The notes under the pieces: generated by a model | The model's database searches: none | Told to the model about the DNA's origin: nothing | Seen by the model: the letters and a program-made list of their open reading frames with translations, nothing else | From: Treponemataceae bacterium | GTDB taxonomy: Bacteria > Spirochaetota > Spirochaetia > Treponematales > Rectinemataceae | Length of the DNA stretch: 64,000 bases | Direction: 5' to 3' | NCBI GenBank assembly: GCA_963678065.2 | Contig: CAXXVZ010000003.1 | Location: 64,001-128,000 of the forward strand | Shown here: one piece after another, positions 32,956-60,745 of the stretch | Numbering within the stretch: the first letter of the stretch is position 1 | How the letters are laid out: each line of letters begins with the position of its first letter | Translations under genes and position numbers: made by a program

Positions 32956-34140
32956 ATGACTGTCGCAATCACCGGGCATCGAAACGCTTGCCTGTCGGTC
33001 CACATTCCCTATGATCCCCGCCTCATCCGCTCCATCAAAGGAATTCCGGATCGACACTGGGATCCGGAAAGCGGATGCTGGCTTATCCCTGACACCCAAA
33101 GCCACGTCGATAGGCTCCTCATGGTCCTGTACGACACAGGCATGTTCACCGCTCCCGATCCTGAAAAAGCCGGAACTGCCGTTGTCGATCCACTCTTGAA
33201 GCGCTACGAAGAAGCCCTCGACGCGCGCCACTTCAGCCCCCGGACAAAACGCGCTTATACCGCCTGGGTGAACCGCTTTCTTGCGCACTGCGGCGGACGG
33301 CAAGCCGCTTTCCTGGGCGAAACGGAAATCAATGTATTTCTGAGCTTCCTGGCCGTTCATGAAAAAGTGAGTGCATCCACCCAAAACCAGGCTCTTGCCG
33401 CCCTGCTTTTTCTTTACAGGCAGGTCATGGGTCGACGAATCGGCGAACTCGACGAGGTAATCCGGGCAAAAAAGCCGACAAGACTACCCGTCGTGATGAG
33501 CCGCGACGAAGTCAGGGCAGTCCTGTCGAACTTGCGGGGCGACAGATGGCTTGCCGCCGCGCTGATGTATGGCACGGGATTGCGCCTCATGGAATGTCTC
33601 GAACTCAGAGTCCAGGACATAGACTTTGCACGGAACGAAATCCTCGTTCGCAACGGCAAAGGCGCCAAAGACCGAGTCACCATGCTTCCTGAATCGCTGA
33701 AAAAACCACTTCGCGACCATCTGGCCACAGTCAGGGCCATTCACGACCACGACATATCTGAAGGCTGGGGGAACGTGCCCGTACCAAACGCGCTGGACCG
33801 AAAATACCCGAACATCGCCGCAGATTTCCGCTGGCAATGGATTTTCCCCCAGGGACGGCGCTGGACTAACCGCGAAACCGGCCAGCAAGGCAGACACCAC
33901 ATCGACGAATCCCTCGTTCAGAAAGCCGTCCATGAAGCCGTACTCAAAGCCGGTCTGACAAAACGCGCCAGCTGCCACAGTTTCCGCCACTCCTTCGCCA
34001 CCCAACTCCTGGAAAACGGCTACGACATACGCACCGTCCAGGAACTCCTGGGCCACAGCGACGTCAAAACAACGATGATCTACACTCACGTACTGAACCG
34101 CGGCCCTTCGGCGGTCCGCAGTCCCGTCGACGGCCTTTGA
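32956..34140 (+). CDS. intI: Integron integrase
   Basis: [21 protein letters not shown], IntI-specific ALDRKYP...WQWIFP...RHH segment, [22 protein letters not shown]. Confidence 0.97.
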
Positions 34141-34300
34141 CAAAGCAGCAAGGCACTTATGATGATACGTATAAACTGCCTGGAACCGGAGCCCCAATCT
34201 GAGCAATACATTGTCGGGGATAGAATTGGAGTTTCATTCCCGGCAGCCACAAAAGATCGTATACCGACACCATGCTCATGTTCCAAACCTTATCAGGATC

Positions 34301-34319
34301 AGCCTAATTATTGTTAGCA
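34301..34319 (+). other. attI region and first recombination point (G/TTAGCA at 34313)
   Basis: GTTAGCA is complementary to TGCTAAC of attC1; CCTAA L-like box upstream; no attC hairpin in front. Confidence 0.7.
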
Positions 34320-34342
34320 GGACCCTTCGGGCGGAGGAAAAA

Positions 34343-39147: not shown

Positions 39148-41554
39148 ATGAAATGCTTTGTAATAATGCCATTTGCAAAAGAATTTGATCTAGTAAAAGA
39201 AGCAATAAAGACAGGCGTAACGAATACAAACAATATTTTCTATAGAGCTGATGAGGACTATAGGTCGGGAAAAGTCACAGAACAAATATGTAAAATGATT
39301 GATGAGTGCGATATTTGTATATGTGATATTACTAAAAATAATCCTAATGTAATATGGGAACTGGGGTATGCATACTCAAAAGAAAAAAGAATAATATTAC
39401 TTGTTCAAGATACAAAAGAAATATTTTTCAATATTAAAATTGAAAGAACAATAATCTATAATCTAGATAACATTAAAAATACTCTAATTCAGCATTTGGA
39501 AATATTTCTCACTAATATAGCTATAGATATTAGCAATCAACCAATAGAAGAATATTTTGAAAAAAATAAATACAATGGTTATAGTAAAATTATTGGATCA
39601 CCACATATAGATAATACTCCATTTAGTTATTTTAGTGAGGCTTTTTCAAAACTTCGTAATCCGCTTTGTAAAAAAGCGAGTTATTGTAACTGAAGCTTCG
39701 TTTTTGCACAGTAAAAATTACATGTGCAGTAAAAAGGGCTCTCTTTTCAGTGCAAAAGATGGACTACCCCTACAAAATCCGGTTCTGCCGGATTGCCCGG
39801 TTACGATTTCTGCAGTTCGGGAAGGATGAAGTACTGCAAAGCCTTGACGGCCGCCAGAACCACTACCCCGCACATGAGCAGGAATGATACTTTCTCAAAT
39901 CCCCGTACAAATATCTGACCCGGTATGAGCCAATCCTTCAAATGCGAGTTTGCACGTTCAACCGTTGTCCTGATTGTGTACCGCTCCTTCTGTGACGGCG
40001 AAAATGGTTCCCGTTCCGTCCCACGACGCGTATTCCGATCAATCAGCGGAACACGCCCACGTCCCTGGATATAGGTCGCGATGGGATCCGCATCGTATGC
40101 AGCGTCCATGACTGAATACAGATGTCGGACCTTTTTCTCTGTTATCTTTTCCAGAGGAATCGCTACTTGCGAATCATGAACATTGGCGCCGGTTACGACT
40201 GCTGAAATAGGGAATCCTGTGTCGCTGACATCAAGGTGCAACTTGTATCCTTTCCATGTTTCCCTATTCCCCTGGCTGTTCTTCTTGCATCCCCATGCAC
40301 AGTCTTTGGATAGTTCTGACAAGGATTTCCTGACGCTTTGGCCGACTTGCTTTTCTATCTGTGTCGGCTCCTTCACAGGCCGAACTTCTCCTTTTCGGGG
40401 ACGACCTCGTTTCCGTTGCGGTGTCACGGAAGAAACAGCTTCACGTTTGGCAGGTACAGGTTTTTCTCGTGCTCGTATCTCCGTCGCATCCCGATTTATG
40501 TGTCCGACGATATGGCCGTCATGACAATCCTTCACCATGGTATTCAAAGTCTGAATCAGCGGAGTCTTTTTTGAAAACTCCGCGTAGCGACGCGAAAAGG
40601 TCGCAGAGCTTGGAACGGAGGTGAAGCCGCATATCCTCCGCAGATTCGGATCGTTGATCAGCCTGTTCCTAAGGTCCGTGACTGTCGCTATGTGGAATAC
40701 CGTTCGGGCGAAAAACGCCCGCATGATCGGTTCGTTCCGATGTGGAGGACGGCCAGTCCGTGCACATGGTGATGTAATCCGTGGCTGAGCATCTTCAATG
40801 ACTCTGAGCAGGGCGATAAAAAAGCGATGCTCGTCGGTGAGATATTCTTCGAAACATCGCTGGATATCGTAGGAAATCGGCAAAAGTATTTGCGCTCCGC
40901 CCAGTATTTCTGGTATGGTTTTCATCAGCGGGGGCTCCTCCTGGTGACGTTTGTGTTGCAACATCATCATACAGGTTCTGTCCCCGCTTTTCATTAAAAT
41001 TCGTTCATCTCATGACTTTTGAAAGAGCCTCTAGTATTAAAAAATTTGTTAAAAGGCATATATTTATAGCTGCTCAAGATCATTATTTCTTAACTAAAAA
41101 TGAAAATAGGGAGAAGTATAAGAATAGTATTTTAGATTTTTTAATTGGAAATCCTGAAAGAAAAGTTGATATTATGATTACAGATGAAAGAATTAAGAAT
41201 AGATATTCTCATAAAACATGGCAATATGTTACCGCAGATAGATTTATTACTGACTTAAATGATGCAATTCAATTTTATCAAGAATTGATTATTTATTATG
41301 ATAATATTAAAGGTAAAAAAGGAACTTTATCAATACATAAAGTAACATTTATTCCTATTACTATTAGCTTTATTGACCCGGAAGAAGAAAATGGATTTCT
41401 TATACTTTCACCAAATGCTTATGAAGATGAAGGTATGAAGAGACCATTCTATGCGTTTTCAAAAAAAAGAAATGAAGAGATGTTTATTGAATATTGGTCT
41501 CCATACAAGAAAAAATATGAAGAAATAAAAGATAGTAATATTTTAGAAAAATAG
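39148..41554 (+). pseudogene. Cassette 6: nucleoside deoxyribosyltransferase/TIR-like N-domain protein split by an IS
   Basis: CFVIMPF, DITKNNPNVIWELGYA; removing the IS and one TAGT joins 39636 to 41036 in frame (~335 aa). Confidence 0.85.
39637..41031 (-). mobile_element. IS5/IS1182-like insertion sequence, 1395 bp
   Basis: TIR GAGGCTTTTTCAAAA / TTTTGAAAGAGCCTC; TAGT duplication; DDE transposase 39801-40925. Confidence 0.92.
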
Positions 41555-43268: not shown

Positions 43269-46200
43269 ATGAATTGGAAAATTTTTTGTGTAAAATACGA
43301 CAATCGAGAGGCATGGGCATTTGAACAAATGTCTTATTTGCTTTTCTGTGCAGAGTTTAATAATCGAATTGGATTATTTCGCTATAAAAACCAAACAGGA
43401 ATTGAGACAGAGCCAATTGAAAAAGACGAAAAATATTATGGTTTTCAATCCAAATATTACACGACCTCAATCGCTGACAATAAAGGCGACATTATTGATT
43501 CAATCCAAAAAGCCAAATCAAAAAACATACAATTAGATGAATTATTTCTCTACATCAACCAAGAACTTTCCGAAAGCACCACTAAAAGTAAGAAGAAACC
43601 TCAATACCAATTAGACATTGAGAAATCCGTTAAGGCAGTAGGCGTAAATATTCAATGGCGAGTTCCAAGTCATTTTGAATTACAATTGTCTTTGCCGGAA
43701 AATAAATATATAAATGACATTTTTTTCAGCCTTGACCCAAACGAAGGAGATTTGCTTGATGAAATTTCTAAACACAATGAAAATATTCTAAAAGCAATTC
43801 AAACTGAAATATCTTTTGGCGACAAGCAAATTAAAATTGACCGAAATTCTGTCGTTGAAGCAATAGCAAATGCTACTCAAAAGAAAAAAAATATAATTAT
43901 TTCAGGCGAAGGTGGTTGCGGTAAGACCGCAATTTTCAAGGAGTTTTATAATTTCTATTTTAAGAAGATACCAATTTGTGTTTTTAAAGCAAACGAGCTT
44001 AATGTAAATCACATTAATGATATATTTCACTTTGACCACAAATTCACATTTGTGCAGTTTCTCAATGCTTTTAAAGATGAACCTATTAAAATATTTGTAA
44101 TTGATTCCGCAGAAAAACTTGCAGAGATTTCTAACAGCGACATTCTTACTACACTAATACAACAGTTAAAAGAAAACGCTTGGAATATCATCTTTACAAC
44201 ACGCTACGCTTATCTTAACGATTTAACTTTTCATATTAAAGAGAATTATCAGTTACCATTTGACGTTAATGATGTTTCTTTGATTGGTGCTGATGAATTA
44301 AAATCAATAGCAGAAGAATTCAAATTCTCACTTCCTGACAATCAAAAATTCTTAGAACGACTTAGAAATTTGTTTTATCTGAGAGAGTATGTTCAACAGT
44401 ATTTAAACATTGATAAACAAGGAAACTATAAAGGATTTATTGACTTGCTTTGGAAAAAGCGAATACAAAATACCGTTCAAAAAGATAATTTACATCTTGA
44501 AAGAGAAAAGTGCATTATCAATATTGCTAAACAAAGATGCGAAACAGGTCGGTTTTATATCAATGCAGATGATTTGTCACAATCAGCGTTGTTCCAATTA
44601 AAGCAAGACGAAATACTTGGTTATGATGATACACATAACGGATATTTTATTACTCACGACATTTATGAAGAATGGACGTTGGACAAAATAGTTTCCCGTA
44701 GTTTTTCAAATTATTCAAACATAAAAGAGTTTTTTGACGAATTAGGGAATTCATTGCCCATTCGTAGAGCATTTAGATTGTGGTTATCTGACCATTTATC
44801 TGAAAATTCTAAAGAAATAGAAAGTTTTATTCAGGGAGCATTTACAAATGTTGAGGTTACTCAATTTTGGAATGATGAAATTTTAGTTTCAGTTTTATTG
44901 TCAGATTATTCAGCGACATTTTTTAAGTTTTTCGAGAACGAAATTATTGCAAATGATTTTAAAATACTAAAGCGGATTTTGTTTCTATTAAGAATTGCAT
45001 GCACCGATATTTCAGCAATTCAAAATATTGAAATTATAAAACCTAAAGGCAAAGGTTGGGAAGAAGTAATTGACCTTATTCACATACATAAATCTGACTT
45101 TTTCGATAGCAATTTAAAACTTGTTTTACCAGTGTTAAACGATTGGTGCGAATTCAACAAAAAAGGAGAAACAACAAGGTATTCGGGTTTATTAGCTTTA
45201 AGTTTAATAAAAAAGACAGAAACCGAAAAAAACTTCTACATGAAAGAAGTTGCAGAAGAAAATATTTTGAAAGTAGTTTTCAATGCAGCCAATGAAATAC
45301 AAACAGAATTAAAAGAAATATTTGATAAAGTAGTTGCTAATAAATGGAATGAACACCAAGACCCATACGAAAAGCTTTGTTCGAAAATTTTAACAAAACC
45401 TTACCTAGCTTTAGAGGTAATAAAAATTCTTCCATTATCTGTAATTCAATTATGTAACTTGTATTGGCAAAAACGAGAAAGAGAAAATGACGGATTCGGA
45501 TATGAAAGAGATAGTATGGAGAATAAATATGGTTTAGTTGATGAATTTAGACATGATTATTTTCCTGCAAGTGCTTTTCAAACGCCGATTTATTGGTTAC
45601 TACAATATCGTTTTAAAGAAACTCTTGATTTCATAATTGACTTTACAAATCGAGCTGTTAAAACTTATAGTCAGTCTGATTATGGTAAAGAAGATGTTGA
45701 AGAAATTAATCTTAATGTCAATGATAAAGAAGTAACACAATTTTTAAGTTGGTCAATTTGGGCTATGTATCGTGGGGTTGGTAGTCCAGTTGTACCCTAT
45801 TTATTGCAATCTATCCACATGGCTTTAGAAAAAATTCTTTTAGAATTTTCTCAGATATTGAAGTCTGAAATAGTTCAATCTATACTTCTTAAAATTCTTA
45901 TAGAATCAAAATCAACTTCACTAACCTCAGTTGTTTGCAGTGTTGTATTAGCAAATCAAGATAAATTCTATGATATTTCTTTAGTATTATTCAAAACAAT
46001 TGAATTGTTTCATTGGGACTCAGTTAGAAGCTTAAATGAATTTCAAGTGTTTAATCCTATCCTGCCCCAAAAGGAATATTGCACCAAAGAGAGAGCAGAT
46101 GCCAAGGAAGCAAAACATCGAAATTCAAATTTAGAATCATTATTCTTAAATTATCAGCTTTTCGGTGTAAAAGGGTTTAGCGAAGAACAAAATATTGAAT

Positions 46201-47936
46201 TCATCGAAAAATTGTATAAAATAATCGACCATCATAAATCCAATGTTTTAAAAGCAAAATCATTTGGAATATTATTGGCCAGAATGGACAGACGAAATCT
46301 GATACCAAAAGTATCAAACCATGGCGACAATAATTTACTAATAGAATTTAGTCCAAAAGAGCTTTCTGAAGAACTTAAAAAGGAAAGCGAGGAAGCCACA
46401 AATCAATATAAAGAGGCTTTTAAATATTCTTCTCTAAGAATCTGGGCGGATTTTTTGATTGGAGTGAGAACTCAAACAAAAACCACAAAACAAGAGGAAT
46501 ATAACAACAATCCTCTTTTAGCTTTAGCTGAGACGAAACAACTTGTTGCAGAATTGCAATCTGGACGAAATATAGGTATCTTGGATTATTCAATCCCAGG
46601 GTTTTCTTGCTCAAAATTAATGATTGAATACAAAGACAAACTATCAAAAGAAGATAAAGATTTTTGCAAAGAAATTATTCATTCTTCCCTGTTAAATCTT
46701 TTTGCCGATGATTACGATTATCAAATAAGTGATGGTGTTGAAGCATCTGTTCATGCGATTCCAGCATTAGTAAATGAATATCCAGAAGAAGCAGAAAATT
46801 ATGTTTCAATAATGGTTTTAGCACTAATAGATGAAACACCAATTGGACAGTACAAAAGAATATGCGATTACGTCATTGAATCAATTCACAAATCAAAATT
46901 GTGGGAGCAAAATTCAAATGTTGCGCAATCAGTTTTATTTGGCTATGTAAAACTCAAGCCTATTTATAAAAATATTATTGCGGAAATAAGGAAAGAAAAA
47001 GGTTGGGGACGAATTTCTAAAAGTTCGATTTTTGAAAAGTTAGAAATGATAAAACCTGATTTTACTTTTGAAAATATATCATTTGACATTCATGATATTG
47101 CTTCACTTGACATTCATGATTTGGAAATAGTTCTTCAAATAATTCCTTCTGATACGAAAAATAAAATTCATTTAGATATTTATGCGAAATCATTGCCGTC
47201 ATTGGCATCACAGTTATTGAAAGATAGGAGAAGCTATAAAGACGATTCAGGAGACGACTCTAACATTTACCTGTTACGTCAACATATTTTCAAAAATTTT
47301 GCTTATTTCATTTTACAAAGAGAACAAAGCGAAATTGAAGTGTTCCTTAAACCATTTATTGATTCGTTTTCTTCAACAGAAGAAACAGCTTCATTTATTG
47401 AAGAATTAGTAATTGCAGAAGATTACTTAAACAAGTATGAACAATTTTGGTACATTTGGAACAGCCTATATTCGAAAATAAAAGAACTATGTGCAAATCC
47501 ATGTGGCTATCATTTAAAAGAAATCATAATAAATTACCTATTAGCATGGCGTTGGTGGAGTGAAGGTATAGAAGCATGGCGTAGCTTAAAAAGGGAAAAT
47601 TTGTCTCTCTATGCTAATGTTTCTAAGGAAATAGGAAATATTCCTTCTGTATTGTATTCTATTGTCAAAGTTTTGAATTCAATTGGAAGCAACTTTAAAG
47701 ACGAAGGCATTGACTGGATTCATATAATTGTATCAACTAATTGCTCTTTAAATCTTGGTGATTTAGAATCAAATACCTTATACTACTTAGAGAAGTTTTT
47801 AAGGAAATTTATTTTCGTTAATAGACAAAAAATCAAGGAAGAAATTAGATTGAAAAATAAAATTATTCCGATTCTTGATTTCATGATTGAACGAGGTTCT
47901 ATACATGGATATTTATTAAGAGAAAGTATTCTTTAA
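43269..47936 (+). CDS. avs4: Cassette 9: AVAST type 4 (Avs4) anti-phage nuclease-STAND ATPase
   Basis: YLLFCAEF..GLFRYKNQTGIETEP...FQSKYY nuclease; GEGGCGKT; IDSAEK; 1555 aa. Confidence 0.88.
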   Translation: MNWKIFCVKYDNREAWAFEQMSYLLFCAEFNNRIGLFRYKNQTGIETEPIEKDEKYYGFQSKYYTTSIADNKGDIIDSIQKAKSKNIQLDELFLYINQELSESTTKSKKKPQYQLDIEKSVKAVGVNIQWRVPSHFELQLSLPENKYINDIFFSLDPNEGDLLDEISKHNENILKAIQTEISFGDKQIKIDRNSVVEAIANATQKKKNIIISGEGGCGKTAIFKEFYNFYFKKIPICVFKANELNVNHINDIFHFDHKFTFVQFLNAFKDEPIKIFVIDSAEKLAEISNSDILTTLIQQLKENAWNIIFTTRYAYLNDLTFHIKENYQLPFDVNDVSLIGADELKSIAEEFKFSLPDNQKFLERLRNLFYLREYVQQYLNIDKQGNYKGFIDLLWKKRIQNTVQKDNLHLEREKCIINIAKQRCETGRFYINADDLSQSALFQLKQDEILGYDDTHNGYFITHDIYEEWTLDKIVSRSFSNYSNIKEFFDELGNSLPIRRAFRLWLSDHLSENSKEIESFIQGAFTNVEVTQFWNDEILVSVLLSDYSATFFKFFENEIIANDFKILKRILFLLRIACTDISAIQNIEIIKPKGKGWEEVIDLIHIHKSDFFDSNLKLVLPVLNDWCEFNKKGETTRYSGLLALSLIKKTETEKNFYMKEVAEENILKVVFNAANEIQTELKEIFDKVVANKWNEHQDPYEKLCSKILTKPYLALEVIKILPLSVIQLCNLYWQKRERENDGFGYERDSMENKYGLVDEFRHDYFPASAFQTPIYWLLQYRFKETLDFIIDFTNRAVKTYSQSDYGKEDVEEINLNVNDKEVTQFLSWSIWAMYRGVGSPVVPYLLQSIHMALEKILLEFSQILKSEIVQSILLKILIESKSTSLTSVVCSVVLANQDKFYDISLVLFKTIELFHWDSVRSLNEFQVFNPILPQKEYCTKERADAKEAKHRNSNLESLFLNYQLFGVKGFSEEQNIEFIEKLYKIIDHHKSNVLKAKSFGILLARMDRRNLIPKVSNHGDNNLLIEFSPKELSEELKKESEEATNQYKEAFKYSSLRIWADFLIGVRTQTKTTKQEEYNNNPLLALAETKQLVAELQSGRNIGILDYSIPGFSCSKLMIEYKDKLSKEDKDFCKEIIHSSLLNLFADDYDYQISDGVEASVHAIPALVNEYPEEAENYVSIMVLALIDETPIGQYKRICDYVIESIHKSKLWEQNSNVAQSVLFGYVKLKPIYKNIIAEIRKEKGWGRISKSSIFEKLEMIKPDFTFENISFDIHDIASLDIHDLEIVLQIIPSDTKNKIHLDIYAKSLPSLASQLLKDRRSYKDDSGDDSNIYLLRQHIFKNFAYFILQREQSEIEVFLKPFIDSFSSTEETASFIEELVIAEDYLNKYEQFWYIWNSLYSKIKELCANPCGYHLKEIIINYLLAWRWWSEGIEAWRSLKRENLSLYANVSKEIGNIPSVLYSIVKVLNSIGSNFKDEGIDWIHIIVSTNCSLNLGDLESNTLYYLEKFLRKFIFVNRQKIKEEIRLKNKIIPILDFMIERGSIHGYLLRESIL

Positions 47937-48614: not shown

Positions 48615-49907
48615 TAAAGTGCGCCTAATCGTCAATACAGAAAAAAAGAAAAATAAGGTGGATCCCAATTTGTCCTTGTATTCATGAATTTCTATGCTGC
48701 CAGCCGTAGGCTGAAGCATCGGTTATACACCTCATCCGGTGTAGCATACTCAAGGGACTGATGAAATCGTTCCTGGTTGAAGAAATTGAAGTATTTGTCG
48801 ACGGCGGTCTTTAGTTCCACGAGCGATTCGTACGAGTTCAGGTAAATTTCTTCGTACTTCAGTGACCTCCAGGTCCGCTCGATATAGATGTTGTCCAAAG
48901 CCCGGTTGACGCCATCCATGCTGATCTGGATTCCTTTGGCTTCAAGAACCGAGACAAACGCCTCGGATGTGAACTGGCTCCCTTGGTCGGTGTTGAAGAT
49001 CCCGGGAGTCCCGTGTACGGTAAGGGCTTCTTCCAGAGCATCGATGCAGAATCCTACATCCATCGTATTCGAGATTCGCCACGACAGAACTTTCCGTGAA
49101 AACAGGTCGATAATCGCCACGAGATAGACATGAGACCCATTCACCTTCAGGTAGGTCACATCCGTTGCCCAGACATGGTTCGCTATCCATATTTTCTTGT
49201 CTCGCAATAAATACGGGTACTTCTTGTGGTGTTTCGACGGTTTCGATAGATTCTTGCCGGGAAAGAGAGCCTTGAGTCCTGCCCGCTTCATGATCCGCCT
49301 GACCTGCTTGCGGGTGACCTTCATATCCTTCAAGGCACAGGCCATCCGCCGGTATCCATAGAACGGATGCTTGTTCAATTCTTCGAGAATTGCCGTGAGT
49401 ACGGCCATCCCCCACTCGTCATCCATCTTTACTGATGTGTAGTAATACGCCGATCTGCTGATTCCCAACAGTTCACATTGCGTGATGATCGGCAGATCCT
49501 GATTGTCGGGTTCTACAAGTTCGGCTCGCTCCCGTACACCTGTCGGTACTTTTTTTTTAGAAACGCATTCTCGACCTGGAGTTGCCCAATCTGCTTGAAG
49601 AGCTCGTCCTGCTTCTCTTGGGCTACTTCTGCTTCCTTGTCCTTCCCTGATCTTTCAAAGAGCGTGGCTACTTGATCGACCACATGCTTTTTCCATTGGG
49701 CAATCTGATTCGGATGCACTCCATAGATTTGGGACAGTTCCTGAAGGGTTTTCTCGTTCCGGACTGCTTCCATGGCCACTTTGGCCTTGAAGCTGGTGTC
49801 GTAGCTTTTGCGCATGGTGTACTCTATGCCTCCCGTATCTTTTTTTACAAGGAGGAATGTCACCTTATTTCCCTTTGTTTCCTGTCTGATTTCTTGGGCT
49901 CATTATA
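48615..49907 (-). mobile_element. IS3-family element, 1293 bp
   Basis: ~46 bp imperfect TIRs; CCC duplication; orfA 49513-49815; orfB DDE ending at 48692; A9G slippery run 49550-49558. Confidence 0.92.
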
Positions 49908-50012
49908 CCCAACACCTGCTTCAACCTTATAAAGCCTTTTGTCATGGTTTTTGCAAAACAACAATGCAAAAACCACGCCAATCCTTCGCTTCGCTCAGGC
50001 CAGGCTTTAAAG

Positions 50013-51447
50013 ATATTATGAGTATACGATCTTGAGGGAGGAAACGAAGAAAGGTAACATTGGAATTGTACGGAAGTAGAAGGAAGATGAAGGTTGGGCT
50101 TAACCTGGGACACAGAGCCCGATTGCAGATTAACCAGCCTTCTTCGGACAATCCCTTGGGATCGTTTTTAAATCGACGAAAACCCGGATAGAAGTATGAA
50201 GGCCTACTACTTGTTTCCAAGATAGAGGCTTCGATTCTGCCTGATACTTCTGGTGTACAATACGGGGGAGGATGGAGATGACCGAAAAGGAAAGGATCAC
50301 CAACGTCAGTGAATGTGAAGAAATCGAGGCGAGTTATTATGGCATCGATCTTCATAAGGATCAAATAACCTGGCATTGCATCGATCGGACATCGAAGGGG
50401 ATTTTGGTTCGTAGAACAGGGAAGATATTGACGGATCGTATCCATGAGGATTTCATTCCGATGCTGCGCAAGGAAAAATGCTATGTAATCGTGGAAGCCT
50501 CCGGGTCAACTTTTTTCTTCCACAGCCTGATACAAAGCCACTGCACGAAGGCGATCATCGTCAATCCATCTGCTTTCCGGGAACTGTATATGACCGGGAA
50601 AAAGACAGACCGGATCGACGCGAAGAAATTGGCTGACCGGCTGATGTACCACATAGAGATGGAGGACGGCGACGATGGATTTCCCGAAGTATTTGTTCCG
50701 GACGAGGAAGCCCTGAAGATCCGCAAACTGGTAACAACCTATGAATTATTGGTTAAGCAGATTACCCAGGCAAAGAACCAAGTGAAGGCCATCTTCCGTT
50801 CAAAAATAATTAATGTCGATGTAGACGTGTTGGATAATGGACTGGAAATAGCCCTACAAAATGTGAGCCTGGACAACGCGGACAAAATTATCGTTCGGTC
50901 GCTCAAAGGATTGTACGATACTTTGTGTCGCGAGAAACAGACCATCAAGGAAGCGATACTCTCCATAGGAGTACGCCGATTTCGAGACGAAATAGCGCTT
51001 CTCACCAGTATATCAGGAGTAAGCATCATCGGGTCGATTGTCTTCATGTCAGATATAGTAACTGTAGGACGCTTTGATTCCGCCAAGAAGTTGACATCCT
51101 ATTTGGCCAGCGTCGGAAAGGTAGACGCATCGGGAAATACTACGAAGAACGGCGGACTCAACAAACGTGGAAGGCGAACCTCGTACCGTTTCATCCTGCA
51201 AGGCCTTGAACATATAGTCAATGGTAACGAAGGGTTCCAGCGATTCAGGGCAAGGCATGCCTCGAAGCGATCAAACAAAATAAGGGCGGCAATTGTACGC
51301 AAGACCTTTGTCACGATGTATTACATGTTAAAGAATCATGACATGTACCGTTTTCTGAATAAATCCATCTATACTCGGAAAATAAGGGAACTGAACAAGA
51401 TCAAAAAAATAATTGAAAAAGCGGCTTGACGGATTTTCTCATAGAAG
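50013..51447 (+). mobile_element. IS110/IS1111-family element, 1435 bp
   Basis: Recombinase 50272-51429 with GIDLHK, VEASG, KTDRIDA, ASG; AAG core on both sides; ATGAG/CTCAT subterminal IR. Confidence 0.92.
50026..50265 (+). ncRNA. Candidate bridge/seek RNA
   Basis: ~250 bp non-coding end behind a junction promoter; contains GCTTAACCT (complement of the target) and ATAGAAG (donor junction); ends approximate. Confidence 0.6.
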
Positions 51448-51538
51448 GTTAAGCAAATGTTGGGTTGACGCTTCGCGCGATGAATATAATTGAGATACGA
51501 TCCCAATTTATGTATTGGTGAAATAGAAAGGACAAAAA

Positions 51539-54120: not shown

Positions 54121-56039
54121 GTGTGCCACGAAATCTGATGGGCACTTTTGAATAGTGATTCAGGAGGTGTCATAAGAGCTGTACGACAGATGAGGAAACA
54201 CCGGGGTAGCTGGTGTGAGCCTCGGGATCTGCTTGCAGGAGCCGGTCTCAAACCGCCAGAAGCTGCTTGGATAAAGAGTCCCGGTGGTGAACGTATCTGG
54301 TTAAAAGGCCCCCGCATGACGGGGTCAGGTGTGGTATCAGGAGGCGAACGAAAGTGAACCGACCGATGAGGTGTCGAAAGTGAGTTTGATGAGGTCAAAA
54401 GCAGTGATTAGCTAGTGCGCTGTGAAAAGAGTCCATCGGGAAACCTGTGTACTGGGTGGACGGCCTCCGGCATTAAGGCGGCGTGAATTGATACTGGGCT
54501 GTTGTATGGAACGTGGGAACCTGTCGTTCCGATGTGAAGGGAGAACCTCAAGCGGCGAACCCGACGAGAGGGAGAGTACCGATGCGGAGCACAGGGACGT
54601 CGCCAGGATGGCGCCGGCTCGTAGTAGTGATGAAGTTCCTGTAACGGGAATGGAGCGAAGGGGCCGACATACTCGTGTCTTTTCTGAACGCCAACTGGCG
54701 ACAGGATGAACGGATGGGAAAGGCAAAACCGTTTGACATACCGAAGCGACTCGTATGGAAGGCATACCAGCGTGTACGGGCGAACGATGGGGCGGCGGGG
54801 ATCGATGGACAGACGCTTGAGAAGTTTGACGGGAAGCTCTCGAAGAATCTCTACAAGCTCTGGAACCGGATGTCCTCGGGCAGCTATCATCCAGACCCAG
54901 TGAAGAGGGTGGAGATTCCGAAGAAGAGCGGAGGAACGCGAGTGTTGGGAATACCGACAGTCGCGGATCGAATCGCGCAAATGACCGCGCGGTTGTGTTT
55001 CGAGCCCATGGTGGAGCCAGGGTTCCATGACGATTCCTACGGATATCGACCGGGGAAATCAGCCCACCAGGCCGTGGCGAAAGCCCGGGAACGGTGCTGG
55101 AAATACGACTGGGTCATCGATCTGGACATCAAGGGATTCTTTGATACCATCGAGTGGGAGCTCATGATGAAGGCGGTGGCGTTTCACAAGCCGCCCGAGT
55201 GGGTTCGGCTGTATATCGAGCGATGGCTCAGAGCCCCGGCAAAGGATGACGCGGGAACGATCATTGAGAGGGATACGGGAACGCCGCAGGGTGGGGTGAT
55301 AAGCCCGCTGCTGGCGAATCTGTTTCTGCAGTACGCCTTCGACATGTGGATGGAACGGAGACACGGGGGAAACCCTTTCGAGCGCTATGCTGACGACATC
55401 GTCAACCACTGCCGGACACAGGCGGAGGCAGAAAATCTCCTCGAAGAGATCAAGCTGCGATTGGCCGAGTGCAAGCTGACGGTACATCCGGAGAAGACGA
55501 AGATCGTGTATTGCAAGGATCGGAACCGTAGGGGAGACTATGAAAGGACCGAGTTTGACTTCCTCGGCTTCACCTTCAGGCCGCGCACGGCGAGGGGGAA
55601 GAACGGGAAGCTCTTCGTGGCCTTTACCCCGGCGATCAGCAGAAAATCCGAGCAGGCGATCAAGGACACGATCCGGACGTGGCGAATCCAGAGGGCGGCG
55701 ACAGCGACCCTCGAAAGTTTGTCGAAACTGTACAACTCGAAGCTTGCGGGATGGTTTGCCTACTACGGGAGATTTCGGCCATCGGCAATGTACGGAATCT
55801 TGTGCATGTTCCAGAAAATCCTCGTAAAATGGGCAAAGTGCACATACAAGCGCCTGAAGAGGAGCTGGCTGAAGGCCGCCGAACTCATGAAGAATGCAGC
55901 TGACAACAAGAAGCACTTGTTCATTCACTGGGAGCATGGATGATATGCCAATGGTAGAGTGTGAAGAGCCGTATGATGGGAGACTATCACGTACGGTTCC
56001 GTGAGAGGCTGGGGGTGAAAATCCCCCGGCCTACTCGAC
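54121..56039 (+). mobile_element. Full-length group II intron (RmInt1-like, bacterial class D/IIB)
   Basis: GTGTG start; DV GAGCCGTATG...CACGTACGGTTC at 55966-55999; ...CTACTCGAC end; precise removal restores attC. Confidence 0.92.
54714..55943 (+). CDS. ltrA: Intron-encoded reverse transcriptase/maturase, no endonuclease domain
   Basis: NLYKLWNRMSSGSY, LGIPTVADR, GTPQGG, RYADD, FDFLG, LFIHW. Confidence 0.95.
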   Translation: MGKAKPFDIPKRLVWKAYQRVRANDGAAGIDGQTLEKFDGKLSKNLYKLWNRMSSGSYHPDPVKRVEIPKKSGGTRVLGIPTVADRIAQMTARLCFEPMVEPGFHDDSYGYRPGKSAHQAVAKARERCWKYDWVIDLDIKGFFDTIEWELMMKAVAFHKPPEWVRLYIERWLRAPAKDDAGTIIERDTGTPQGGVISPLLANLFLQYAFDMWMERRHGGNPFERYADDIVNHCRTQAEAENLLEEIKLRLAECKLTVHPEKTKIVYCKDRNRRGDYERTEFDFLGFTFRPRTARGKNGKLFVAFTPAISRKSEQAIKDTIRTWRIQRAATATLESLSKLYNSKLAGWFAYYGRFRPSAMYGILCMFQKILVKWAKCTYKRLKRSWLKAAELMKNAADNKKHLFIHWEHG

Positions 56040-56180
56040 TCAACCTTACAAATCCTTTGGCATGGTTCTTGCGAAAGATTACGCAAGAACCATGCCAAGC
56101 CCTACGGGCACGGATTTAAAGGTTAAGCGAATGTTAGCCGGACGCCGAATCTATTCACACCAATAAGGAGATTTCCCGAA

Positions 56181-59024: not shown

Positions 59025-59402
59025 AAACGGGGCCGACCGCTTCCAGCACCCGGCAAAGGCCGGATGCAGCGGCGGTCGGCCAATCCGGGGAGCGCCCATG
59101 TACGCGTAGGACAACCGAATACCCCTTCGAATTCCTCAAGAACCCGGAAGAACCGATATTTTGGGGGAGCATAACGTTGCAGCGCTTTTCAAATAGGAAC
59201 TGCGAAATCATACTGAACAAGCTTTAAACTTCCGACGCACCTGTTTCCAGCAGCAACATCAAGGACGCACCCAATATTTTACGAAAGACCATCACCGAGG
59301 GGTGAGATATGATCAATTGTTGTGGACAGGGGAATAGGAAACGGACGTTCATTTCCGGTAGGGTTTTGTCGCCAAACGAAACCACCGAAAGGGAGAACGT
59401 CC

Positions 59403-60463
59403 GTGCGACAGACTACAATCAAGCCTCAAAATGATGCAATGCCCGAAACCATGCTGGTGCTGGAAGCCCTCATACGAGAGGGAGCCCGAAAACTGCTCCA
59501 TGCAGCATTGGAAGATGAAATCGAAGCGCATCTTGCCCGGTATCGTGATCTGAAAGACACAAACGAGAGACAGTGTGTGGTGAGAAACGGATACCAGCCG
59601 GAACGGACAGTCCTCACGGGAGCAGGACCCATTCCGGTCAAGCGTCCACGGGTAGACGACAGGATATTGGCAAAAACAGGCGACGAGCGTTTCACAAGTA
59701 CGATATTGCCGAAGTTTATGAGACGGGCGGCGAGCATCGATTCCCTCGTACCTGCGCTGTACCTGAAAGGGATTTCCACCGATGATTTTCCGACAGCCTT
59801 GGAGGCAATCCTGGGTCCACAGGCAAAGGGGCTTTCAGCAACCACGGTAGTACGGCTGAAAGAAGTGTGGACCGATGAATACGAGGAATGGAATAAGCGG
59901 GATGTGAGCGGGAAGCGATATGTGTCCATCTGGGCCGATGGGGTGTACTGCTCTGCACGGCTCGAAGATGAACGATCCTGCTTTCTGGTTATCATGGGCG
60001 CTGATTCATTCGGTAAAAAGGAATTGCTTGCTGTTTCCGACGGTTTCAGGGAAAGCGCGCAGTCCTGGAGAGAGCTTCTTCTCGGCCTTCGCTCTAGGGG
60101 ACTTGTCCACGTACCTTCCCTTGCTGTCTGTGACGGTGCCATGGGATTCCAGGCGGCGGCTGCGGAAGTATGGCCGGAAACAAGAATCCAACGCTGCTGG
60201 TTCCATAAGTCCGGCAATGTCGTGGATACGCTGCCCAGTTCTATCCAGGCAAAGGCCAAGGACATGCTCCACGACCAGTATCTCGCGCCGACGAAAGAGG
60301 ACGCGCTCAAGGCTTTCAGCCTGTTCATTGAAACATTCGGAGCCAAATATCCGAAAGCGGTGGAATGCTTGACAAAGGACAAGGACGACCTGTTCGCCTT
60401 CTACGATTTTCCTGCTGCCCATTGGGTACATATTCGGACGACGAATCCTATTGAATCGACATT
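59403..60463 (+). pseudogene. IS256-family transposase, 3'-truncated
   Basis: RNGY, LYLKGIST, WADG, DGFRES, QRCWFHK, RTTNPIEST, then a break. Confidence 0.88.
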
Positions 60464-60612
60464 ACCAATGTCATCAAGGCTCAGTCGACTCTTTTCGCCC
60501 ATTGGGAGTGGGGGGGTACGGTACAGGCAGAATATGAAGAGCCGTATGAATCAAGAGATTCACGTACGGTTCCGTGAGGGGCTGAGGGTGAGATTTCCTC
60601 GGCCCACTCGAC
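60464..60612 (+). mobile_element. Group II intron 3' remnant (IEP tail, DV, DVI)
   Basis: Alternative frame LFAHWE; DV at 60539-60572; ends CCACTCGAC; followed by attC body. Confidence 0.88.
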
Positions 60613-60708
60613 CTTATTAATCCTTTGCCATGGTTCTTGCGAGAAGATCACGCAAGAACCATGCCAAGCCCTTCGGACACGGATTTAAAGGTTAAGCCAA
60701 TGTTAGAA
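60613..60708 (+). repeat. 3' part of attC14
   Basis: CTTATTAATCC...GGATTTAAAGGTTAAGCCAATGTTAGAA. Confidence 0.88.
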
Positions 60709-60745
60709 GGACACCGCTCACGCGGCGCAAAAGGAGAGCAAAAAC

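Follow-up and report, generated by a model that had tools for sequence, protein, structure and literature searches.

The question raised by this locus is whether an insertion sequence that interrupts an attC site of an integron was brought there by an RNA encoded in its own end. The window (the whole stretch of DNA analysed, 64,000 nucleotides) contains an integron with at least 14 attC sites in its array and an integrase co-oriented with that array. One attC, at 49907-51465, is interrupted by an insertion whose breakpoint lies inside the L' box. We find that the element (50011-51447) is an intact IS110-family insertion sequence in this L' box, and we give a probability of about 0.88 to the reading that it moves by bridge-RNA-guided recombination, a guide RNA of its own homing into attC L'. 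As read from the sequence, its guide layout is unusual, joining an RNA that lies upstream of tnp (the gene of the transposase), the IS110-type position, to an IS1111-type guide order and to short terminal repeats with 7/3 extensions. The integron features that the argument needs are these:

32956..34140, + strand: host integron integrase (TIGR02249, 450 bits against a cut-off of 265)
49907..50010, + strand: left part of the attC (R'' 49907-13, L'' 49918-27, central stem), the left flank read by target guide 2
51448..51465, + strand: right part of the attC (remaining L' 51448-54; R', GTTGGGT, 51459-65)

The original prediction held that excision restores the attC; removal of the element in silico indeed gives a 124-bp site whose R'' and R' boxes are complementary at 7/7 positions and whose bottom strand folds into a hairpin of -38.1 kcal/mol. 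The 1.4-kb insert would part the attC arms, and would block use of the site by the integrase until excision. The intI region (window 32956-34320) is co-oriented with the cassettes, which is the layout of Treponema integrons, and the likely attI crossover lies near 34314. A spirochaete is the probable host.

Homologous loci were collected from genome and metagenome scans, 50 of them at tblastn E<=1e-25. Three duplicates or remnants from the element's own genome were skipped, seven loci, most of them on cut contigs, resisted parsing, and 40 remained as parsed elements; 36 of the 40 had both flanks and gave 27 distinct guide sets, which fall into 16 clusters at 50% identity and span 27-91% protein identity. 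Guides were placed from RNA motifs and stems, and flank matches were not used in placing them; the guide anchors were drawn up after the sequences had been viewed, the parser was revised once, and guide 1 was permitted two registers in observed and permuted scores alike. Scores were compared with a null of 20,000 permutations, in which related clusters are not fully independent, and some metagenomic contigs, with the same right flank and differing left flanks, may be collapsed assemblies. A DNA search of 69 genomes of the same family gave one other match, internally deleted, and the 15 matches to the 15-nt guide motif in viral contigs all lay outside the RNA context.

The limits of the element are set by an AG dinucleotide at both ends:

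50011..50012, + strand: core dinucleotide AG, left copy
50013..50022, + strand: left end, with -10 box TATTAT (50014-19) and subterminal repeat ATGAG (50018-22)
51426..51445, + strand: right end, with -35 box TTGACG (51426-31), subterminal repeat CTCAT (51438-42) and terminal AGA (51443-45)
51446..51447, + strand: core dinucleotide AG, right copy

The duplicated core has a length of 2 nt, with no long target duplication; 34 of 38 homologs have one and the same NG core at their two ends, and CG, AG, GG and TG all occur (a relaxed NG). The original prediction had proposed AAG, and those letters are present at 50010-12 and 51445-47; close homologs carry C before the left AG, AAG is consequently rejected as the core, and its presence on both sides is, on this comparison of sequences, a coincidence of the occupied site. 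The subterminal repeats are short (5-7 bp), 3-5 of the 5 compared positions matching across the 27 guide sets, with extensions of 7 and 3 bp outside them; ATGAG starts 7 nt from the start of the element, the core counted. ATG and CAT stand at these 7/3 offsets in 39/39 elements having a left end, a count that expresses consistency and not frequency, since the parser required the motifs.

The right end lies 18 bp beyond the stop codon, and the RNA is not downstream of tnp. When the two ends are joined, TTGACG (51426) and TATTAT (50014) are separated by a 17-bp spacer, and a -35/-10 pair at 16-18 bp spacing, with the -10 matching at 4/6 positions or better, is found in sequence across the junction in 27/27 guide sets; furthermore, the -10 box moves by 3 nt where the -35 moves. 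A junction promoter, as had been predicted, thus recurs in sequence throughout the set. A linear promoter scan gave no plus-strand site at the left end, as is expected for a promoter formed at the junction. Joining of the circle would therefore yield one transcript containing both the RNA and the recombinase.

The protein encoded between these ends is the following:

50278..51429, + strand: IS110-family recombinase, 383 aa from ATG 50278

The ORF caller started at 50272, giving 385 aa, and the start at 50278 is probable. In the 385-aa numbering D26, E75, D113, D116 and S287 are intact, and the catalytic residues are kept in 35 homologs. The protein contains PF01548 and PF02371 and scores above the cut-off for NF033542. 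Its predicted structure (pLDDT 84) has IS621 and ISCro4 as best fold matches (E 3e-12, TM about 0.56, ~19% identity in the modelled comparison), and its best named protein matches are ISLin1 of Leptospira and ISHvo10 of Haloferax, at 25-28% identity. A DEDD RuvC domain together with a Tnp domain with the catalytic Ser, and a non-coding end whose guides covary with target and donor, place the element by sequence in the IS110 family sensu lato.

That non-coding end encodes a predicted bridge-RNA-like sequence with two loops, to which we assign four guides:

50098..50105, + strand: target guide 1, GCTTAACC; complements the core G and right flank on their top strand (51447-54, attC L')
50122..50130, + strand: target guide 2, ATTGCAG (50122-28), followed by handshake AT; top-strand sense of left flank and core
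50148..50155, + strand: donor guide 1, degenerate in the window copy (5/8 against the left end), covarying across the clade
50188..50196, + strand: donor guide 2, ATAGAAG (50188-94), followed by handshake TA; matches the right end at 51441-47

Single matches of this kind are modest evidence: when the mononucleotides of 50013-50265 were shuffled 200,000 times, GCTTAACC arose in 472 (0.24%) and ATAGAAG in 7,606 (3.8%), and TTTAAA appeared in 11% of shuffles of the left-end region. It is consequently covariation across homologs that carries the case. Over the 27 sets the scores were 150 for guide 1 against the right flank's reverse complement (null mean 68.6), 113 for guide 2 against the left flank (35.4) and 27 for the core (8.3); the target-loop handshake, which in the window is AT, as are the 2 nt that open the left end, scored 48 against the first two left-end bases (32.7). 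Donor guide 2 scored 45 against 24.5 (n=23), the donor handshake against the first two right-flank bases 29 against 13.3 (n=23), and donor guide 1 94 against 71.6 (n=22). Each of these seven tests gave 0/20,000 permutations, and each gave 0-5/20,000 when one element was kept per 50%-identity cluster (n=12-16). In contrast, controls in the IS621 polarity were not significant (72 against 66.7, 3,726/20,000; 35 against 35.3, 11,239/20,000), and that polarity is rejected.

An RNA-guided IS110-family recombinase programmed for the attC family of its host had been foreseen, and the covariation across homologues bears it out. Two of the four guide matches first listed stand: the attC match GCTTAACCT at 50098 (TTAACC at 50100) is present, GCTTAACC there covarying with the right flank, and ATAGAAG at 50188, said to match the circle junction, is donor guide 2, which covaries with the right end. 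The other two are present as letters and are not guides. TTTAAATC, at 50167, is part of the donor-loop hairpin's variable loop, and the homolog alignment shows that it is not conserved; the second TTAACC, at 50130, is stem plus linker, GGTT 50092-95 pairing with AACC 50132-35 (two-sided changes in 2/4 pairs). The true second target guide, ATTGCAG at 50122, had been missed, and the occupied target is not GATTTAAA but GCTTTAAA, at 50004.

The window copy itself is an imperfect example: its donor handshake is matched at 0/2 positions, and the occupied site fits guide 2 at only 2/5 flank positions. A homolog with a changed guide 2 (L024, AGCGCAG) fits its own left flank better. Where the two cores of an element differ, the left end has that of the RNA in 4/4 cases, a small number, as reversed polarity predicts; the chemistry described for IS621 in the accessible part of PMC11208158 predicts such inheritance if the first-exchanged strand is the antisense one, and later mutation is the alternative reading.

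The RNA has two competing predicted folds, which involve these parts:

50026..50055, + strand: 5' leader, competing with the target-loop stem
50089..50142, + strand: predicted target-binding loop (stem 50089-97/50134-42, inner hairpin 50107-20)
50158..50185, + strand: donor-loop hairpin, holding the unconserved TTTAAATC

The two-loop bridge fold is 98.9% paired in eight close homologs. The rival fold, 93.9% paired, has 4 two-sided pairs; in it the leader takes up both donor guide 1 and the target stem's 3' strand. The two folds are mutually exclusive, and the leader fold is the minimum-energy one for the full RNA (z -3.3). Leader 50045-55 can pair with 50137-46, an equivalent helix existing throughout the clade, and leader 50026-39 can pair with 50152-65 in the close family. 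Among 28 elements, pairing of the leader with its own stem strand is stronger than cross pairing (-21.1 against -14.1 kcal/mol, 0/20,000), and so is that of the target stem (-17.9 against -13.3 kcal/mol, 0/20,000), from which both helices appear to be maintained. In the naked full-length RNA the target-loop stem has a probability of 0.00 and the guides are unpaired to no more than about one half; of three leader-free fragments, two bring the stem to 0.97-0.98 and the third does not. One reading of the predicted leader is a switch controlling guide availability; another, by analogy with the 5' UTR of ISPpu9 (accessible part of PMC12288879), is that it may control tnp translation or processing. 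Rfam gave no family over the left-end region at the gathering score.

In the mechanism that we propose, the left-end RNA would pair with the attC target and with the element's own joined ends. Covariation shows that the right flank's top strand is the partner of guide 1, which is strict (7/7), and the left flank's bottom strand that of guide 2, which is loose (2-4/5); one element could thus enter several attC subfamilies. As covariation also shows, 7 nt of the right end are read by the donor loop and the left end is read weakly, and the short ATG/CAT repeats are probably read by the protein. By inference from IS621, a DEDD-Ser tetramer would then swap strands about the AG core with the help of the target-loop handshake, the DNA being read on the opposite strand relative to IS621, in the IS1111-type order.

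The predicted target range includes other attC sites of the array, as the original prediction had it: 8 of the 13 others in the window have an exact match to the core and the 7-nt right flank, and six of them are identical to the occupied 14-mer. The exact 9-mer target occurs 15 times genome-wide, four times outside attC. The close family comprises ten parsed members at 64-100% identity with nearly identical guides; the right flank is the exact L' motif in 8/10, has one mismatch in 1/10 and is cut short in 1/10, and the left flanks vary, guide 2 being matched at 2-4 of 5 positions, so that by sequence guide 2 looks like a compromise among host attC subfamilies. Of 9 close members, two (L002, L030) allowed the whole attC anatomy to be reconstructed and a third (L031) part of it, the others being short or possibly chimeric. 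Most relatives of the same architecture sit at sites without attC anatomy, yet follow their own guides. One member, a 64%-identical element on a 1,416-bp contig (L001), is filed under Oscillochloris (Chloroflexota), by horizontal transfer or misbinning. In a sister subclade (L007, L008, L010, L011) the left flanks end in TAAC plus the core, like the attC R'' box; these are possibly a second attC-targeting lineage, at R'', only L010 having given a plausible attC bracket. The nearest sister clade (L034, L106, L107, L108) targets a GG-core palindromic repeat with a TCTGACCCC-like right flank, and in L108 the right end is tandemly duplicated.

The genome holds one intact copy of the element and no other; a broken relative lies at C3:819k. 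At three places (C2:641969-641928, C2:643976-643937 and C3:819271-819225) a remnant of a relative's right end is joined to an attC's L'/R' half, and the last of these remnants keeps the tnp C-terminus and is split by a group II intron fragment. A near-identical copy, with 2-3 differences per 420-500 nt, was found in another sample. RNA run X20 gave one contig of 162 nt (depth 5), which matches 50082-50168 with 0 differences and continues in an A-rich tail, and no contig across the ORF. This is a weak hint of expression, as contigs cannot show ends or strand; by analogy it agrees with a target-loop RNA such as CazIS110-1 has as its short species. A contig of RNA run X19 was rejected as a sign of expression, since a whole relative is in it together with the flanks, and DNA or read-through may be its source. 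The contigs of DNA runs X4 and X6 showed no circle joint, though rare forms are dropped from contigs.

Three other explanations have to be weighed against bridge-RNA guidance. Coincidence of the matches, or leftover target DNA, in an element that is protein-guided or a dead relic, might be argued from the shortness of the matches, the single intact copy and the lack of a circle; position-specific covariation over 16 independent clusters with negative polarity controls largely refutes it, the ORF and ends are intact and a near-identical copy exists in another sample, so that we regard it as very improbable. We also think it unlikely that the folded attC, as hairpin or cruciform, is the main determinant of targeting and that the RNA match only fixes the position. 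The loose fit of guide 2 at the occupied site would suit that explanation, as would the gate by structure reported for ISPpu10 (accessible part of a review) and the four non-attC sites with the same 9-mer, all of them empty; but the eight perfectly matching attCs in the window are equally empty, so the emptiness of the non-attC sites says little, and the guide-following relatives at sites lacking attC anatomy speak against it.

A rather doubtful possibility, though less so, is a seekRNA-type mode in which targeting is the task of a processed RNA (about 50082-50170) that has only the target loop, the donor loop being secondary or vestigial in the subclade and the ends being recognised mostly by the protein through the short repeats. 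It draws on the degenerate donor guide 1 and unmatched donor handshake of the window copy and on the sole RNA-library contig there, which covers the target loop and ends within the donor hairpin; in the accessible parts of the sources, short seekRNAs suffice for ISEc11 (PMC11187229) and target-loop-only RNA makes up 90% of CazIS110-1 transcripts (preprint). Against it, the donor handshake and the two donor guides all covary, throughout the clade, with the ends and flanks, and CazIS110-1 requires the full RNA for excision and integration (same preprint, accessible part). The seekRNA-type and bridge modes can coexist.

We compared the element with known systems, whose descriptions are taken from the accessible parts of the papers cited. 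The bridge mechanism has already been solved (PMC11208158), and attC-targeting IS1111 elements with seekRNAs are already published (PMC11187229). With IS621 and ISCro4 (PMC11208160, PMC11208158; PDB 8wt6, 8wt9, 9t56) the window element shares the DEDD-Ser fold, a 2-nt core and a left-end RNA under a junction promoter, with two loops that each run stem, guide, hairpin, guide, handshake. Unlike them, at ~19% identity, it has reversed polarity, the first guide pairing with the top strand of the downstream flank; its sense-strand core is NG (AG) where theirs is CT, and it has a partial donor guide 1, a competing 5' leader helix and an attC target. With the IS1111-attC group (ISKpn4, ISPst6, ISPa25, ISPa21; PMC11187229, PMC13604230) it shares RNA-guided insertion into attC, the top-strand match 5' of the bottom-strand match and the 7/3 terminal extensions, and its right end, CAT plus AGA, is that of IS4321, ISKpn2 and ISSaen1, three of five IS1111 references. 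In that group, however, the RNA lies downstream of tnp, the repeats are 11-13 bp and, as we read the targets in PMC13604230, insertion is at the L''/R'' end, facing against the cassettes; here the RNA is upstream, the repeats are 5-7 bp and a 383-aa protein accompanies an insertion in L', co-oriented with the cassettes.

According to PMC11187229, IS1111 seekRNAs place the top-strand match first and IS110 the reverse, and the RNA is usually downstream in IS1111 and upstream in IS110, with few positional exceptions. The window element thus has the upstream RNA of IS110 sensu stricto (IS621, ISEc21) without its bottom-strand-first order, and the guide order and 7/3 extensions of IS1111 without its long repeats, its downstream RNA or a transposase within the IS1111 clade. 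ISLin1 and ISHvo10 are distant relatives, with no attC targeting on record in this analysis, whose right ends read CATAG-N-core and whose 7-mer recurs upstream of tnp as donor guide 2, as in the window element. This right-end key is repeated upstream in both and in 7 of 48 distant loci (an eighth match is an unrelated motif), from which the layout is probably older and wider than the clade. The literature searched held no reading of ISLin1 or ISHvo10 guides; ISHvo10 is mentioned, in the accessible text of PMC11187229, only as having non-coding regions at both ends. The text of that literature, figures apart, also held nothing on an upstream bridge RNA with IS1111 order or on L' targeting; figure panels or Durrant's Supplementary Table 5 may show the layout for ISLin1-like elements. 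ISPpu9 of Pseudomonas putida (accessible part of PMC12288879) resembles the window element in AG at both ends, an upstream RNA and a structured 5' UTR, and its remnants, tnp end plus right end, resemble those of the window relatives; unlike the window element it targets REP and its left end lacks the ATG repeat.

Only a quick tree was made, of 75 rows, which included five IS1111 references (IS4321, IS5708, ISShdy1, ISSaen1, ISKpn2), ISLin1 and ISHvo10 and left out IS621 and ISKpn4. In it the attC elements, seven in number, group in a single branch (SH-aLRT 100) that lies within a set of 26 relatives whose guides are different, and all 33 form one branch (100) apart from the five IS1111 references, outside which the recombinase falls, and from ISLin1 and ISHvo10, deep branching being unresolved. 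Since ISKpn4, ISPst6 and ISPa25 target the opposite end of attC (accessible part of PMC13604230), attC targeting was probably acquired independently of them.

Tentatively, and as a possibility that we consider less than even, the clade may be a third IS110-family architecture and a candidate intermediate in polarity and RNA position, with a leader switch and an independent reprogramming onto attC L'. If so, polarity and RNA position evolved separately; the leader would lock the stem of the target loop, together with the donor guide in the case of the attC subclade, until the transcript is processed or bound, unlocking would free the target-loop guide, and attC targeting would have come about by guide reprogramming onto L'. 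The element breaks the published pairing of IS110 with upstream RNA and bottom-first order and of IS1111 with downstream RNA and top-first order. Furthermore, the 27 guide sets form a natural reprogramming series that fixes all guide registers, both handshakes and the relaxed NG core in a bridge-recombinase clade ~19% identical to IS621, and may be of use in tool mining. The conserved leader helix points to a possible means of holding an upstream bridge RNA off until processing, and attC would have been colonised independently at a second position, where insertion can freeze the cassettes of an array in which defence genes such as Avs4 are found.

The Avs4 anti-phage nuclease is an integron cassette at window 43269-47936 (NF041815, above the cut-off). 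An IS3-family element (48692-49863) adjoins the R'' box of the split attC on its left, this cassette boundary having been struck twice, and another IS lies at 39801-40994. Two further attCs, near 56036-56142 and 60608-60711, are interrupted on their L'' side by group II intron sequence (54217-56039 and 59322-60612), one with an RT ORF (54675-55943) and the other an intron remnant beside a Mutator-family transposase; both keep perfect L' targets for the window element.
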